Shown one piece after another: positions 2,906 to 34,028 of a DNA stretch of 52,849 bases. Every line of letters starts with the position of its first letter. Position 1 is the first letter of the stretch. The stretch is from Candidatus Hermodarchaeota archaeon. GTDB taxonomy: Archaea > Asgardarchaeota > Hermodarchaeia > Hermodarchaeales > Hermodarchaeaceae. The notes beneath the pieces are model-generated. The model was not told where the DNA came from. It made no database searches and saw nothing but the letters and a program-made list of their open reading frames with translations. The DNA is taken from contig JAEOTB010000032.1 in assembly GCA_016840065.1 (NCBI GenBank), positions 1-52,849 on the forward strand. Reading direction: 5' to 3'. The position numbers and the translations under genes were made by a program.

Positions 2906-4123
2906 TTGAGTTTAACTGGATTTGAAAGAGTTAGCCAACAACGTCGGCAAAGCCTTAAACGAGCTGCTGATGAAGGGCATCGCATCATCGGTTGTGTTTA
3001 TCCCTCATTTCCAATAGAACTCTTTCTAGCTCACAACCTGTTACCTACCTTGCTCTGGGCAAATCCCAGTGTTCCCTCTGCTTCTGAGGCGAGTCTACAG
3101 ACCTTTTGTTGCGGTTTCGCACGGAATCTCTTCAGCCAGCGAGCAAAAAATCTACTGACACCCCTTTCAGCTATATTCTTTCCCGGAAACAGATGTGACT
3201 CTCTACAGAATCTTTGCGATGTTTGGCGTTTCCGGTTCCCCGACGATAAGGTTCTCCGATTGAACTATCCTTCCACCAAGGAAAGCGAAGCGACAACAAA
3301 GTATCTCGCCGAGGAGTTGCAGTCAATGAGTCGCACCGTCGAAGAATCCTTTGGACTTCCGTTCTCACAGAAGGAGTTTAGCCGTGCTGTTGGTCTTACT
3401 GCTCAATTTCGCGCATCCTCTCAGTTCATTTCGGCAGCTAGGCTCCTCCAGCCTCAAATCCTCACCTACGCTGAATATGCTGAGCTGATATGCCGCTTTC
3501 TTACCTTACCAAATTCGGAATCGTTGAATCAAATTGAAAACAAAGCTTCGGCAATCCGTCAAATTCTCGAGAAAAACAAGCAGGTCATTAACACCGAAGC
3601 ATTGAGCTACACCCTACTTCACCAAGAAATCGGTGAGGTAACGATTTCCCCTGATACTTCCAACCCGCGTATCGCAGTGATTGGGGGGATGGTTGACCCA
3701 GAAGGTTTTGCCACAATGTTCAACAATGCCGCCTCAGAAACTAGCCCAAAAGCTGAAATCGTTCTAGACCTACTTTCCTTTGGCTTACGGACCACATTCA
3801 CCAAACCCCCACGACTCCAAGGTAACCCCTTTGAAGAAATTGCACTAAGCTTACTTGGTCACTCTACTGAGCCAACACAAGAAGGACTACCTGAACGGCT
3901 TGGACTTCTTAAGAAATCACTAACAATGTTCGCTATTGATGGATTGATTATATGCGAGCAATCCTTCTGTGACCCTGACGGGTTTGAAGCACCTGAAGTA
4001 ATCTCAGCTGCAGCAGAAGAGAGAGTTCCCACGGTTCGACTAAATCTAGATGCTGAACTCTCTGATAGAGCAAGATTAGAGAGTAAAATCCAAAGCTTTC
4101 TTGAAACACTAACAATGAGATGA
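2906..4123 (+). CDS. 2-hydroxyacyl-CoA dehydratase beta subunit (HgdB/HadC/FldC family)
   Basis: IGCVYPSFPIEL, TFCCGF, RCDSL, SFCDP and ARLESKIQSFLE motifs; three Fe-S cysteines; stop overlaps the next start (ATGA). Confidence 0.85.
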   Translation: MSLTGFERVSQQRRQSLKRAADEGHRIIGCVYPSFPIELFLAHNLLPTLLWANPSVPSASEASLQTFCCGFARNLFSQRAKNLLTPLSAIFFPGNRCDSLQNLCDVWRFRFPDDKVLRLNYPSTKESEATTKYLAEELQSMSRTVEESFGLPFSQKEFSRAVGLTAQFRASSQFISAARLLQPQILTYAEYAELICRFLTLPNSESLNQIENKASAIRQILEKNKQVINTEALSYTLLHQEIGEVTISPDTSNPRIAVIGGMVDPEGFATMFNNAASETSPKAEIVLDLLSFGLRTTFTKPPRLQGNPFEEIALSLLGHSTEPTQEGLPERLGLLKKSLTMFAIDGLIICEQSFCDPDGFEAPEVISAAAEERVPTVRLNLDAELSDRARLESKIQSFLETLTMR

Positions 4124-5364
4124 TAAAGATGGCGCACAACTCGACCGTAGAGGCTTCACAGGAGGATCAAAAAGCCTACAGAAAACTCCATACACGTGTA
4201 CAGCACCGCGAAATAATGACACTCCACTACTTTGGTGCCAAAACAGCACAACAAGAAGGGCGCTTAGCATGGGTGACCTCGGGGTTCCCTGTTGAAATAC
4301 CAGTAAGTATGGGAGTCTATCCTGTATACCCTGAACAGTATGGGGCCATTGTTGGCTCCGAGAAAGTTGGTCCTAAGGTGTGTGGTTTCGCTGAAGATCT
4401 AGGCTTCTCCCAAGAACTCTGCTCGTATGCAAGATGCAGTATCGGATCAGTCCAAAAACCTGATCAGAGCCCCATGTTTGGTCTCCCCACTCCTCAAGCA
4501 CTCCTCACATGCAACAACATCTGTGGCACGGTTCTACGATGGTACGAGGCCGTCTCCCAAATGACCGGAGCGCCCGTGTACGCTCTTGATACGCCTCCCC
4601 TTGAAGAAACCCAACCTGCCCATCACCTTGTATATGTACGGAGTGGTCTTGAAGGACTAATCGCCTTTCTGAGCCAACACTTCCATCGACCTTTTGATGA
4701 AGCCGCATTGGAAAAGACCGCGTACCTCTCAAACGATGCGATAGATCTGTGGGTCAAAATCCTCAATGCTTGCAAAAATAAACCGACACCATTGAATTGT
4801 GCAGACCGCTTCATCGCCATGGCGCCAATCGTATCAATGCGCGGAACCCAAGAAATCCTACAATATTATCAAGCACTACTCCAAGAAGTCGAAAACCGTA
4901 TAAAACAAGGGGTTGGAGCGATTAGAGAGGAACGGGTACGTCTGCTCTGGGACAATATTCCGCCCTGGTATGTCATATTTAGGCTCTTTAATGGCCTCGC
5001 TGAACGTGGGGTTGTGTTTCCTGCAGACACCTATACTCATGCATGGAGTGGTGGTATCGAGCGTGGGGATGTGCTTGAGAGCATAGCCCGGACCTATTCG
5101 AATGTTTACCTCAATAAAGGACTTTCCGCAAAGATTGACATCATGTGCCGCCTCATAAAGGAGTTCTCCCTTGAAGGCTTCGTCCTCTTCTCTGTCCGTT
5201 CCTGTAAGCGGTACTCCATTGGACAGATGATTGCGAAAGAACAGATTACTGAGCGAACTGGTGTCCCTGGTGTAATTATAGAGGGTGATATGGTGGATAG
5301 TCGACTTTTAAACGAGGCACAGATACAGACGCGTATCGATGCGCTCCTTGAAATGATTCTCTGA
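4120..5364 (+). CDS. 2-hydroxyacyl-CoA dehydratase alpha subunit (HgdA/HadB/FldB family)
   Basis: AWVTSGFPVE, YPEQ (catalytic Glu position), ELCSYAR, CNNIC, RSCK, and GDMVD...QTRIDAL. Confidence 0.9.
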   Translation: MIKMAHNSTVEASQEDQKAYRKLHTRVQHREIMTLHYFGAKTAQQEGRLAWVTSGFPVEIPVSMGVYPVYPEQYGAIVGSEKVGPKVCGFAEDLGFSQELCSYARCSIGSVQKPDQSPMFGLPTPQALLTCNNICGTVLRWYEAVSQMTGAPVYALDTPPLEETQPAHHLVYVRSGLEGLIAFLSQHFHRPFDEAALEKTAYLSNDAIDLWVKILNACKNKPTPLNCADRFIAMAPIVSMRGTQEILQYYQALLQEVENRIKQGVGAIREERVRLLWDNIPPWYVIFRLFNGLAERGVVFPADTYTHAWSGGIERGDVLESIARTYSNVYLNKGLSAKIDIMCRLIKEFSLEGFVLFSVRSCKRYSIGQMIAKEQITERTGVPGVIIEGDMVDSRLLNEAQIQTRIDALLEMIL

Positions 5365-5377
5365 GGCTACGATCAAC

Positions 5378-6166
5378 TTGCCGGATAAACAGAAAATGGG
5401 TATCGGTATTGATGTAGGCTCTACAACAACGAAGGGTGTTGTAGTAGATGCTTCAGGTGCAATTCTTGCCATCTTCCTACTATCTACTGGAGCCTCTGCA
5501 CAGAAAGCAGCCCAGCGCTGCCTTGCCGAAATTTCCACCGCATTAGGACAAGAACTCGATGATGTATCTACTGTGAGCACAGGATATGGACGAAAGCAGG
5601 TAGTGTTTGCACAACAGTCGATAACAGAAATCACCTGCCACTGTGTTGGTGTACACCACCTAAACTCAGATATCCAAACGATTATTGATATTGGTGGACA
5701 GGATTCCAAAGTAATACGTGTTGGCTCCAAAGGTCGTCCTTCAGACTTTGAACTGAATGACAAATGTAGCGCTGGCACTGGTCGATTTCTCGAGGTGATG
5801 GCAAGAGTTCTTGAAGTTTCACTTGAGGAGCTGGGCCAGATGGCGCTACGGGCAAAGACACCCTCCACGATTAGCAGCACATGTACCGTTTTTGCCGAGA
5901 GCGAGGTTATAGGCAGAATTGGTGCAGGTGACAACCCTGACGATATTGCTGCAGGAATCCACCAGTCGATGGCAGCAAAAATCGCTGCACTTTCAAGGCG
6001 AGTAGGAGTTGCATCCCCAGTTTGTGTTACTGGTGGTGTTGCCCTCAACCCTGCTCTTCGGACCTTCTTGGCGCAACACCTTGAAACCGAGCTTTGGGTA
6101 CCTGATAAACCTCAATTCACTGGAGCGCTTGGAGCTGCACTCCTTGCCCTTGAACTAGTTTCATAA
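5378..6166 (+). CDS. ATP-dependent dehydratase activator (HgdC/HadI family, ASKHA ATPase with [4Fe-4S])
   Basis: GIDVGSTTTK, TGYGR, IDIGGQDSK, NDKCSAGTGRFLE, STCTVFAESE, TGGVA and GALGAA motifs. Confidence 0.95.
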   Translation: MPDKQKMGIGIDVGSTTTKGVVVDASGAILAIFLLSTGASAQKAAQRCLAEISTALGQELDDVSTVSTGYGRKQVVFAQQSITEITCHCVGVHHLNSDIQTIIDIGGQDSKVIRVGSKGRPSDFELNDKCSAGTGRFLEVMARVLEVSLEELGQMALRAKTPSTISSTCTVFAESEVIGRIGAGDNPDDIAAGIHQSMAAKIAALSRRVGVASPVCVTGGVALNPALRTFLAQHLETELWVPDKPQFTGALGAALLALELVS

Positions 6167-31681: not shown

Positions 31682-32569
31682 ATGATAGGCTCAGGAAAAG
31701 TAGTGACATTAGACCAAGCTATACAGCAACTAGTTCCAGATGGGAGTCAGATATACCTTGAGGGAATATTAGCAAACAGAGCACCAATGGCTGCAATTCA
31801 CGAGATAATAAGAGCGCGGCGACGTGGGCTTCGACTGGTTTCTGCTCCTAATGGTTTAGCCATCGACCAGTTGATTGGAGCTGGTTGTGCAGACGAAATC
31901 GAATTCTATTTTCTTGGTTTCATGAATATAGATGGTTTTCAAACTATGCGCCAGTTTCGTTCAGCAGTTGAAACAGGTGCAATTAAAACAAAGGAAAGCA
32001 TGGGTTACGCTGTCTGCATGGCATTACGGGCAGGGGCTTACGGAATCCCCTTTATACCGATTCCAGATTTCCAAGGGTCCGACCTCCTCAAAGTCAGAGA
32101 AGATTACAGGATTATGCCTTCTCCATACAATTCAACTGAAATCACCGTGATTGTTCCTGCATTACAACCTGACGTTCTCCTTCTTCACGCCCACATCGCA
32201 GATGAACAAGGTAATGTTGTCTTAGATGAGCCTTGGCCAATGTTTACCCTAACTACAGCTCAAGCTTGCCAGAAAGTTTTGGTGACTGTAGAGGAAGTAG
32301 TAGAAGCTGATACTCTAGAGCCCAACCGAATTATTATTCCTCACTTCCTCGTTGACGCGGTGGTTCAGGTTCCCTTCGGTGCGGCACCCACAGCTCTGAA
32401 CAAAAGGTATGAAGTAGATAATAATCACATTGCACTATACCAGCAGTCAGCAAAATCCACTGAAGGATTCGCACAATACCTCGACGAATACATCTTTGGT
32501 TGCTCCAATCACGAGGCATTCATAGAAAAGATTGGTGAACCTCGAGAGTGGATTCGGGGGCTTGACTAG
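31682..32569 (+). CDS. CoA-transferase family I fold, subunit A (GctA/AibA-like)
   Basis: RAPMA, LIGAGC, LRAGAYGIPFIP, PDVLLLHA..AD..GN and VTVEEVV motifs. Confidence 0.88.
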   Translation: MIGSGKVVTLDQAIQQLVPDGSQIYLEGILANRAPMAAIHEIIRARRRGLRLVSAPNGLAIDQLIGAGCADEIEFYFLGFMNIDGFQTMRQFRSAVETGAIKTKESMGYAVCMALRAGAYGIPFIPIPDFQGSDLLKVREDYRIMPSPYNSTEITVIVPALQPDVLLLHAHIADEQGNVVLDEPWPMFTLTTAQACQKVLVTVEEVVEADTLEPNRIIIPHFLVDAVVQVPFGAAPTALNKRYEVDNNHIALYQQSAKSTEGFAQYLDEYIFGCSNHEAFIEKIGEPREWIRGLD

Positions 32570-32570
32570 G

Positions 32571-33347
32571 ATGGCATTCACTTTCCCTGAGTTAATTATT
32601 ACTACCCTGTCCCGTCAGCTTAAGGATGGAGAGCGAGTATTCACGGGAGTAGCAAGTCCGGTTCAGATGATGGCTACTTTGCTTGCAAAGGCTACACATG
32701 CCCCCAATCTCCTCTATTTCACTATTCTAGGAACGATAAACCCTCAGCCCCATAGGTTGCCGTATTCCACTGGAGATCCTCATCTCTTTGACCGCTGCTC
32801 TAATGCAATAACCTTCCCTGAGATTTTTGATTTAGCGAATCGTGGTCGCATGGATGTTGCCTTTCTTGGTGGCACGCAAATTGACAAGTTTGGCAGCCTG
32901 AATATGAGCATAATAGGGAAAGACCCCTCTCGCCCGAAGGTTCGCTTACCTGGAGGAGCTGGAGGGCCTTTGATGATTCGAAGCTTCAAACGAGTTATTT
33001 CTTGGAGGTCGCGCCATAGTCAGCGATGCCTTGTAGAACAATTACCATTCACCACAAGTCCAGGGTGGGTTCCACATATGAAAGGACAGAGGCGTGGGGG
33101 TCCAGATGTCGTGGTTACTGATCTCTGTGTCTTCAAGTTTAACAAACAAACCAGACAAGTCTACTTGGATTCCCTTCATCCAGAGGTTCGCTTTGAAACT
33201 GTTAAGGCAAAAACGGGATTTGGCTTTGATGTCCCCAAGCAGCCAAAGATAACACCCGAACCTTCAGAGGACGAACTCTTAATCCTTCGAAAAGTCATCG
33301 ACCCTGAGAAGATTAGGAATAGATTGATAAAACCTCCAGAGGTCTAG
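32571..33347 (+). CDS. CoA-transferase family I fold, subunit B lacking catalytic Glu (AibB-like)
   Basis: TGVASP, ATHAP, FLGGTQID..G..N, RLPGGAG and VTDLCVF; the ESG position reads ILG. Confidence 0.85.
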   Translation: MAFTFPELIITTLSRQLKDGERVFTGVASPVQMMATLLAKATHAPNLLYFTILGTINPQPHRLPYSTGDPHLFDRCSNAITFPEIFDLANRGRMDVAFLGGTQIDKFGSLNMSIIGKDPSRPKVRLPGGAGGPLMIRSFKRVISWRSRHSQRCLVEQLPFTTSPGWVPHMKGQRRGGPDVVVTDLCVFKFNKQTRQVYLDSLHPEVRFETVKAKTGFGFDVPKQPKITPEPSEDELLILRKVIDPEKIRNRLIKPPEV

Positions 33348-33461: not shown

Positions 33462-34028
33462 TTGGGTGATCTTGTGGAATTAACTGGAAGACAAATGGCC
33501 TTCATTGAAAAACTTCTTGAAAGGCGTGGATTCGAAAAGACCGGAGAAGACGAGGAACATGAGGACTATCATGACATCTATTCAAAATCGACTAAACCGA
33601 GATCGAAAGAGACGCTCCTACTCAGAGTTTTTCTTGGAAAGGATGTTATAGGTGTCGAAATCCTCCGAAATTTGGTGAAAGCACAGGAGGAAGACGAATA
33701 CACTAGGGCAGTCCTCATTGGCGGCGAAAGATACACCTATGCAGCTCGCCGCGAAGCAAAGGAAAAGAATGTTGAACTGCTTCATCGGAGATTTCTTTCA
33801 ATAGACCTTTTCATGCACATTATCGTACCAGAGCATGATGTTATACCTGAAGATGAAGTCGAAGAAGTCGAAGCAAAGTATGGCATCAACCGCAGTCAGT
33901 TACCAAAGATAAAAGCAGGTGATCCTGCCGCAAAGGCTATAGGCGCACGTCCAGGTGATGTCATTCGGATTATAAGGGAATCCCCGACTGCCGGGCGCCA
34001 TGTAATCTACCGATACTGCATTCCCTAG
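33462..34028 (+). CDS. rpoH: RNA polymerase subunit Rpo5/H with N-terminal RPB5-like domain
   Basis: C-terminal HIIVPEH...QLPKI...DP...GARPGDVIRIIRESPTAG...YR, plus a ~110-aa N-terminal extension. Alternative GTG start at 33474. Confidence 0.92.
   Translation: MGDLVELTGRQMAFIEKLLERRGFEKTGEDEEHEDYHDIYSKSTKPRSKETLLLRVFLGKDVIGVEILRNLVKAQEEDEYTRAVLIGGERYTYAARREAKEKNVELLHRRFLSIDLFMHIIVPEHDVIPEDEVEEVEAKYGINRSQLPKIKAGDPAAKAIGARPGDVIRIIRESPTAGRHVIYRYCIP

Follow-up and report, generated by a model that had tools for sequence, protein, structure and literature searches.

A gene pair of the glutaconate CoA-transferase fold in an Asgard archaeon lacks the catalytic glutamate and carries an AibAB-like active-site signature

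We analyzed a 52,849-nucleotide stretch of DNA (contig JAEOTB010000032.1 of assembly GCA_016840065.1, positions 1 to 52,849; hereafter, the window) from Candidatus Hermodarchaeota archaeon, an Asgard archaeon from marine sediment with a genome of 2.59 Mb that is 84% complete and has a contamination estimate of 5%. Two adjacent genes of the window, here denoted A and B, encode a two-subunit enzyme of the glutaconate coenzyme A (CoA)-transferase (family I) fold from which the catalytic glutamate (Glu) has been lost. Judging by its residues, the pair has an active site of the type found in AibA/AibB, the 3-methylglutaconyl-CoA decarboxylase of Myxococcus xanthus (PDB 5MZW-5N03), although it is not an AibAB ortholog. 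We tentatively favor the possibility that the pair is a cofactor-free acyl-CoA decarboxylase.

Results

A two-subunit enzyme without the catalytic glutamate

Subunit A, the alpha subunit of the CoA-transferase fold, is encoded at 31682-32569 on the forward strand (295 amino acids, aa), and subunit B, the beta subunit without the catalytic Glu, at 32571-33347 on the same strand (258 aa). Both match the Pfam family CoA_trans (PF01144; 84 and 56 bits, respectively, with a cut-off of 23 bits), so that two adjacent CoA_trans subunits are present, as in the GctAB/AibAB/IpdAB subgroup of the family I fold. In an NCBIfam scan, 3-oxoacid CoA-transferase subunits were matched only weakly, far below threshold. 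The start of A at 31682 is consistent with the lengths of its orthologs (288-304 aa). A single base separates the TAG stop codon of A from the ATG of B, and the two genes are translationally coupled.

The nucleophile of a competent family I CoA-transferase, exemplified by GctAB, the glutaconate CoA-transferase of Acidaminococcus fermentans (PDB 1POI), is Glu54 of GctB, located in an E-S-G motif. The motif stretch of subunit B reads KATHAPNLLYFTILGTINP, and the site of the catalytic Glu is occupied by Ile52 (codon 32724-32726, forward strand), as found by HMMER alignment, joint alignment and a codon check. In the HMMER alignment to solved structures, K-A-T-H-A-P-N-L-L-Y-F-T-I-L-G of B is paired with R-A-T-H-A-P-D-L-T-Y-L-A-C-V-G of AibB, which places Ile52 on Cys56, the AibB residue that occupies the place of the catalytic Glu of glutaconate CoA-transferases (PMC7756340). 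In the joint alignment, the Glu of a paralog encoded in the same genome falls on Ile52, and this same Glu aligns with the V-E-S-G of GctB. Among 47 orthologous B subunits from public data (63-81% identical), the site is Ile in 41 and Leu in six; because all 47 have one or the other, the loss of Glu is not a sequencing accident. The first-pass annotation had described B as lacking the catalytic Glu and ping-pong CoA transfer as unlikely. The loss proved real and conserved, and Ile52 rules out transfer via the canonical Glu.

The paralogous pair (P0122/P0123, contig C118; L003:1408-3158) carries the Glu. Its B subunit reads I-I-Y-E-G-G, finds GctB as the best PDB match (1poi_B, 190 bits) and aligns its Glu with the E-S-G of GctB. 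This Glu-type pair is retained beside the Glu-less one across the archaeal family to which the genome belongs (f1, the query family) and is probably the genome's real CoA-transferase; with a GctAB-like, Glu-bearing pair kept, the transferase role is already covered. It would be very surprising if A/B were a second CoA-transferase that uses another carboxylate as nucleophile. Conserved acidic residues do lie near the pocket, namely Asp69 and Glu84 of B and Glu105 of A, but the Asp69 and Glu84 sites are acidic in Glu-type proteins too, so that these residues are no substitutes for the lost Glu, and none of the 19 pocket-lining positions of AibAB is acidic in the query. The retention of the Glu-bearing paralog also counts against such a transferase, as does the lack of transferase activity in IpdAB, a Glu-less enzyme of the same fold (PMC5380842).

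AibA and AibB are the closest solved relatives

When subunit A was compared with the PDB by sequence, AibA (5mzw_A; 137 bits, E 4.8e-39) ranked ahead of GctA (110 bits, 9e-31) and IpdA (90 bits, 2e-24). The same order was obtained for subunit B: AibB (119 bits, E 1.8e-33), GctB (106 bits, 2e-29) and IpdB (53 bits, 3e-13). An AlphaFold2 model of B was built from an alignment of 72 homologs and reached a predicted local distance difference test (pLDDT) score of 96; a single-sequence model (pLDDT 31) was set aside. With the former model, Foldseek returned AibB as the top match (template-modeling (TM) scores 0.87/0.93, root-mean-square deviation 2.4 Å, 32% identity), followed by GctB (TM 0.84) and IpdB (TM 0.83-0.84). 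AibA/AibB are therefore the closest solved structures for both subunits by sequence and, for B, by fold as well, ahead of GctAB and IpdAB. The motifs on which the first-pass annotation had based this resemblance all match AibA/AibB in the HMMER alignments: TGVASP, ATHAP[ND]L.Y and IT.P..FD.A.RGR in B, and RAPMA, S.PN, GY.V...LRA and PFIP.PD in A.

GctAB, the second-best solved match, shares the fold, the subunit arrangement and the ATHAP motif with A/B but differs in the nucleophilic Glu of its E-S-G motif and in a Glu-type signature, Gly-[LIMV]...Gly at AibB positions 32, 33 and 133. IpdAB, the COCHEA-CoA ring-cleaving hydrolase of Mycobacterium tuberculosis and Rhodococcus jostii (PDB 6CO6, 6CO9, 6CON), shares the fold and the loss of Glu; Gly57 of its beta subunit stands at the Glu site (PMC5380842). 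The query is far more distant from IpdAB in sequence, has Ile rather than Gly at this site and shows no steroid-catabolic (KstR2-type) context at its locus, so that the features that would place it with IpdAB, close similarity among them, are missing.

The active site resembles that of AibAB

The residues that form the AibAB pocket have been listed as 27, 28, 53-55 and 75 of A and 30, 32, 33, 71, 86, 89, 90, 132-135 and 138 of B (supplementary information of PMC7756340). In a comparison of 19 AibAB pocket residues, the query has eight identical ones, eight hydrophobic or conservative changes and three changes to Gly, and none is charged, so that the pocket is uncharged as in AibA/AibB. The identical residues (AibAB numbering) are Pro54, Asn55 and Phe75 of A and Gly30, Ala32, Ser33, Phe90 and Gly134 of B; Ala133 is shared too. 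From AibAB to the query, the conservative or hydrophobic changes are Phe27 to Ile, Met28 to Leu and Leu53 to Ala in A, and Cys56 to Ile, Ser71 to Thr, Ile86 to Phe, Leu89 to Ile and Leu138 to Met in B. The changes to Gly, all in B, affect Glu72 (Gly68 in the query), Val132 and Ala135.

These residues fall in short loops that are strongly conserved. The G-V-A-S-P loop of B (32646-32660, forward strand), corresponding to Gly30, Ala32 and Ser33 of AibB, is invariant in 44 of 44 orthologs; its Ala-Ser is common to the AibB clade and to a clade of bacterial pairs that also have Ile at the catalytic site, while Glu-type transferases have Gly-[LIMV]. In the P-G-G-A-G-G loop of B (32949-32966, forward strand), which corresponds to Val132-Ala135 of AibB, Ala130 and Gly131 are invariant. 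Ala is found at the AibB-133 site in all Glu-less clades compared, and Gly in Glu-type proteins; in AibAB, the amide of the adjacent Gly134 touches the thioester oxygen (PMC7756340). Overall, the signature Ala32/Ser33/Ser-Thr71/Ala133 of Glu-less B subunits (47 from the query family, three from a sister Asgard family, 62 of the bacterial Ile type and 11 of the Cys type) stands against Gly/[LIMV]/[VI]/Gly in 43 Glu-type proteins. In subunit A, the A-subunit alignment places A-P-N (31844-31852, forward strand) on the AibA pocket residues Leu53-Pro54-Asn55, and Pro54-Asn55 was found only in the AibA-like protein, the query family and the sister family (f12), not in the bacterial Ile clade or in Glu-type A subunits.

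Another conserved residue of subunit A is Glu105 (codon 31994-31996, forward strand, in K-E-S-M-G-Y), which corresponds to Glu103 of AibA. The site is Glu in 5/5 query-family and 3/3 sister-family proteins, in the AibA-like protein and in 32 of 33 A subunits of the bacterial Ile clade, and is variable in Glu-type A subunits. We take it to align with Glu105 of IpdA, which is presumably catalytic. In AibAB, the equivalent residue lies outside the published pocket model (supplementary information of PMC7756340).

The query lacks the proton relay proposed for AibB, with Ile52 and Gly68 in place of Cys56 and Glu72. This absence is not decisive, because AibB variants with Ala, Ser, Asn or Val at Cys56 did not lose activity altogether (PMC7756340) and because the Glu72 site varies within the Cys-type clade itself (Val in six, Glu in four, Thr in one). 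Ile at the Cys56 site is compatible with AibAB-type chemistry, and neither Cys56 nor Glu72 may be essential.

Phylogeny and distribution

A search of 1.84 billion representatives yielded 2246 relatives, in which the residue at the catalytic site is highly varied (Glu, Ile, Gly, Leu, Cys, Val and others). Many separate clades (Ile, Val, Leu, Gly, Cys, Ser, Tyr, Phe and Trp types) surround a single Glu-bearing one, and some members are A-B fusions of ~550 aa; most Glu-less clades of the GctB-like family appear unstudied.

In an IQ-TREE phylogeny of 74 B subunits (posterior mean site frequency model), supports were assessed with the Shimodaira-Hasegawa-like approximate likelihood ratio test (SH-aLRT). 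The query clade (SH-aLRT 100) joins the Ile-type clade of the sister Asgard family (100), then a Val-type sequence (92) and then a Leu-type pair (93). The Cys-type clade, which includes the AibB proxy P0240 (294 bits), is separate (98), and all Glu-type proteins, including the genome's own paralog, form one clade (99). The AibAB-like identity proposed in the first-pass annotation thus stands in part: AibA/AibB are the nearest solved relatives and share active-site residues with the pair, but orthology does not hold, given the separate clade, the ~33% identity and the absence of Cys56 and Glu72 equivalents. The archaeal pair further differs from AibA/AibB in having no aibR/aibC/mvaS operon.

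Orthologs (at least 380 bits) were found in 18/18 genomes of the query family and nowhere else among 300 Asgard genomes. The sister Ile-type form, 47-51% identical, is present in 3/3 genomes of one other Asgard family, f12. No other Asgard match exceeds 42% identity, and the ones inspected are of the Glu type; pairs at ~42% identity, from families such as f14, were accordingly discarded as evidence on the Glu-less clade (they read IIYESG and IIFEAG). Bacterial Ile-type pairs, mainly from Chloroflexota and also from Clostridia, Nitrospinota and others, resemble the query in B (47-49% identity, Ile at the catalytic site, GVASP, S-T-x-D-P and PGGAG) but have Thr-Ala-Gly instead of Ala-Pro-Asn in the pocket of A and do not group directly with the query in the better tree.

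Gene neighborhoods

In the query family, the pair lies in the order peptidase M24, peptidase M20, major facilitator superfamily (MFS) transporter, serine hydroxymethyltransferase (SHMT), CorA, A, B, full-length Rpb5 and PfkB kinase, which is the same in the window and at five other loci. Neither the aib operon context (aibR, the reductase gene aibC and mvaS) nor the hydratase gene liuC is present at the query-family loci, where the neighbors are CorA, Rpb5, SHMT, MFS and peptidases.

The Rpb5 gene just downstream of B (33462-34028, forward strand) encodes a 188-aa protein that combines an Rpb5 domain at its C terminus (E 1e-26) with a PD-(D/E)xK / Mrr_cat-like domain at its N terminus (E 5e-8); this is the long architecture of a eukaryote-like Rpb5 and not that of the short archaeal RpoH. 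The two-domain product is also called in the relatives L009, L011 and L013, whereas the gene calls in L014 and L015 cover no more than the C-terminal 87 aa.

In the sister family (L025:8663-14832, L026:8839-14971 and L016:7106-13101), the Ile-type pair heads an apparent operon of same-strand, closely spaced genes in the order A, B, a CxxCxxCC (PF03692) protein, IorA-like and IorB-like subunits of a 2-oxoacid:ferredoxin oxidoreductase, and DUF362. Nearby are an FAD-linked 2-hydroxyacid-dehydrogenase-like pair, an acyl-CoA dehydrogenase and a zinc alcohol dehydrogenase. This context points to amino-acid-derived acyl-CoAs and so far gives the best clue to the class of substrate. Among 80 loci of the bacterial Ile clade, mostly from Chloroflexota, the commonest neighbor is an AMP-forming acyl-CoA synthetase (23 of the 56 parsed loci), followed by a class II aldolase-family gene (eight loci). 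An adjoining ligase would suit an enzyme that acts on an acyl-CoA supplied by another enzyme rather than one that makes an acyl-CoA itself.

Candidate pathways

The first-pass annotation tentatively placed the pair in one of two pathways, and neither link found support other than the likeness of the enzyme to AibAB. The first was with the 2-hydroxyacyl-CoA dehydratase system at 2906-6166 (forward strand), which consists of two HGD-D subunits and a BcrAD/BadFG-type activase and together with which a biotin-independent glutaconyl-CoA decarboxylase would complete 2-hydroxyglutarate fermentation. This version is unlikely. It draws on the presence of the dehydratase and its activase in the window, of the Glu-bearing, GctAB-like transferase on C118 and of thiolase and crotonase genes for the use of crotonyl-CoA. 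In addition, neither OAD_beta, the GcdB-type pump subunit, nor a biotin carboxylase was found in the 84%-complete genome, which we count in favor of a soluble decarboxylase. However, the dehydratase lies 25 kb away within a single, wholly syntenic block, and its best named NCBIfam matches are the subunits HadB/HadC of the leucine-pathway enzyme (R)-2-hydroxyisocaproyl-CoA dehydratase, not a glutarate enzyme, at scores far below cut-off. Of 301 Asgard genomes, 251 have HGD-D, and most of these lack the pair, which is limited to the query and sister families; HGD-D was not found in any of the three sister-family genomes that carry the pair. Co-occurrence with HGD-D dehydratases is thus not specific and was rejected as a functional link.

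Two carboxyltransferases of the genome, on contigs C63 and C120, were considered as GcdA and rejected: the genes around them encode a 5S-type subunit, a methylmalonyl-CoA epimerase and mutase-like proteins, which makes a role in a methylmalonyl or transcarboxylase system more likely. A 12S-type carboxyltransferase, a 5S/HMGL-like subunit and a rubrerythrin-like gene are present in nearly duplicate sets on the two contigs (C63, 263-4838; C120, 1-4236), which may be a true duplication or strain heterogeneity; the epimerase and mutase-like genes were noted on C63.

The second proposed link was with a route from 3-hydroxy-3-methylglutaryl (HMG)-CoA to isovaleryl-CoA. As a true AibAB equivalent, the pair would convert 3-methylglutaconyl-CoA, derived from the HMG-CoA of the mevalonate pathway, to 3-methylcrotonyl-CoA on the way to isovaleryl-CoA. 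AibAB is the nearest characterized enzyme, and the genome encodes two crotonase-family hydratases and a zinc-alcohol-dehydrogenase-family protein; even so, we regard this equivalence as quite improbable. No aibC, mvaS or liuC-type gene is adjacent at the seven loci examined, both crotonases match only generic enoyl-CoA hydratase models, and the pocket differs from that of AibAB at five positions (Cys56 to Ile, Glu72 to Gly, Val132 and Ala135 to Gly, and Ile86 to Phe). The sole thiolase/HMG-CoA-synthase neighborhood found belongs to a Glu-type pair of another family. A possible hint of a need for isovaleryl-CoA, the loss of LeuA, is equally seen in ~80% of Asgard genomes: the LeuA_dimer domain of isopropylmalate/citramalate synthases was not found in 19 query-family or three sister-family genomes, but because only 21 of 101 Asgard genomes (at least 85% complete) have it, its absence says nothing about a route to leucine from isovaleryl-CoA. 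This distribution suggests that leucine auxotrophy is widespread among Asgard archaea or that they use a different leucine route.

In the other Asgard family just mentioned (L028:335-4745), the Glu-type, GctAB-like pair, one of those at ~42% identity, lies directly upstream of an archaeal thiolase / HMG-CoA synthase / DUF35 trio, which suggests a CoA-transferase with a role in acetoacetyl- or HMG-CoA metabolism.

Discussion

In the cofactor-free decarboxylase that we tentatively favor, A and B would still bind acyl-CoA, and no enzyme-CoA thioester would form because Ile replaces the nucleophilic Glu. The retained thioester-binding loops, G-V-A-S-P and P-G-G-A-G-G, would surround an uncharged, mostly hydrophobic or Gly-lined pocket like that of AibA/AibB, in which decarboxylation would proceed without a cofactor via a thioester enolate or dienolate. 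With such a pocket and these loops in place, cofactor-free decarboxylation appears to be the most likely reaction. Candidate substrates would be carboxylated acyl-CoAs, such as glutaconyl-CoA, 3-methylglutaconyl-CoA or a substituted malonyl-CoA.

Several observations weigh against a decarboxylase. The proposed proton donors of AibB, Cys56 and Glu72, are Ile and Gly in the query, and Val132 and Ala135 are both Gly, so that the shape of the pocket differs from that in AibAB. Query B is not nested in the AibB clade and by BLAST is slightly closer to the genome's own Glu-type paralog (38% identity, 154 bits) than to the AibB-like protein (33%, 118 bits); the deep branching order is not settled by the tree, and an approximately unbiased test does not reject a grouping of the query with the AibB clade (p 0.39). 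The neighbors in the query family are uninformative on function because the whole block is syntenic. Finally, the reaction of IpdAB, the other Glu-less enzyme that has been characterized, is a hydrolysis rather than a decarboxylation (PMC5380842).

The main rival is another reaction through a thioester enolate on an amino-acid-derived acyl-CoA, either an IpdAB-like retro-aldol/retro-Claisen hydrolysis of a C-C bond or a double-bond or positional isomerization; we consider it rather less likely than decarboxylation. IpdAB demonstrates that the Glu-less fold can hydrolyze C-C bonds (PMC5380842), and IpdB is structurally nearly as close to B as is GctB (TM 0.84). Glu105 of A, conserved across all Glu-less clades compared, could serve as a general base, and the acyl-CoAs made by the sister-family operon need not bear a carboxyl group. 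On the other hand, similarity to IpdAB is well below that to AibAB (for B, E 3e-13 vs 2e-33), the pocket signature of the query is that of AibB rather than that of IpdB with its catalytic-site Gly, and no steroid or ring-degradation genes were seen.

The loss of the catalytic nucleophile, with no pathway partner identified, could also be taken as a sign of a non-catalytic acyl-CoA- or CoA-binding protein, a sensor or pseudoenzyme. We give this alternative very little weight: the active-site loops are invariant in 44-47 orthologs with overall identities of only 63-81%, the pair has kept its two-subunit architecture and its translational coupling, and the members of related Glu-less clades studied to date are enzymes.

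To our knowledge, only two Glu-less offshoots of the CoA-transferase fold have been characterized, the decarboxylase AibAB and the hydrolase IpdAB, and a literature search found no paper on archaeal AibAB-like enzymes or biotin-independent glutaconyl-CoA decarboxylases. A more speculative and rather doubtful proposal is that the Ile-type pair represents a third functional class of Glu-less enzymes of this fold, confined to a few Asgard lineages, in which glutaconyl-CoA or another carboxy-acyl-CoA derived from amino acids would be decarboxylated by a soluble, cofactor-free enzyme in place of the biotin- and membrane-dependent decarboxylases, for which neither OAD_beta nor a biotin carboxylase was found in this genome.

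The practical gain would be modest until the substrate is found. If the pair is an AibAB-like member, the routine label 'glutaconate CoA-transferase' in metabolic reconstructions of Asgard archaea would be corrected: such reconstructions otherwise credit these organisms with two transferases, although one of the two is probably a lyase. If this holds, an archaeal enzyme whose pocket resembles that of AibAB would extend cofactor-free acyl-CoA decarboxylation to Asgard archaea.

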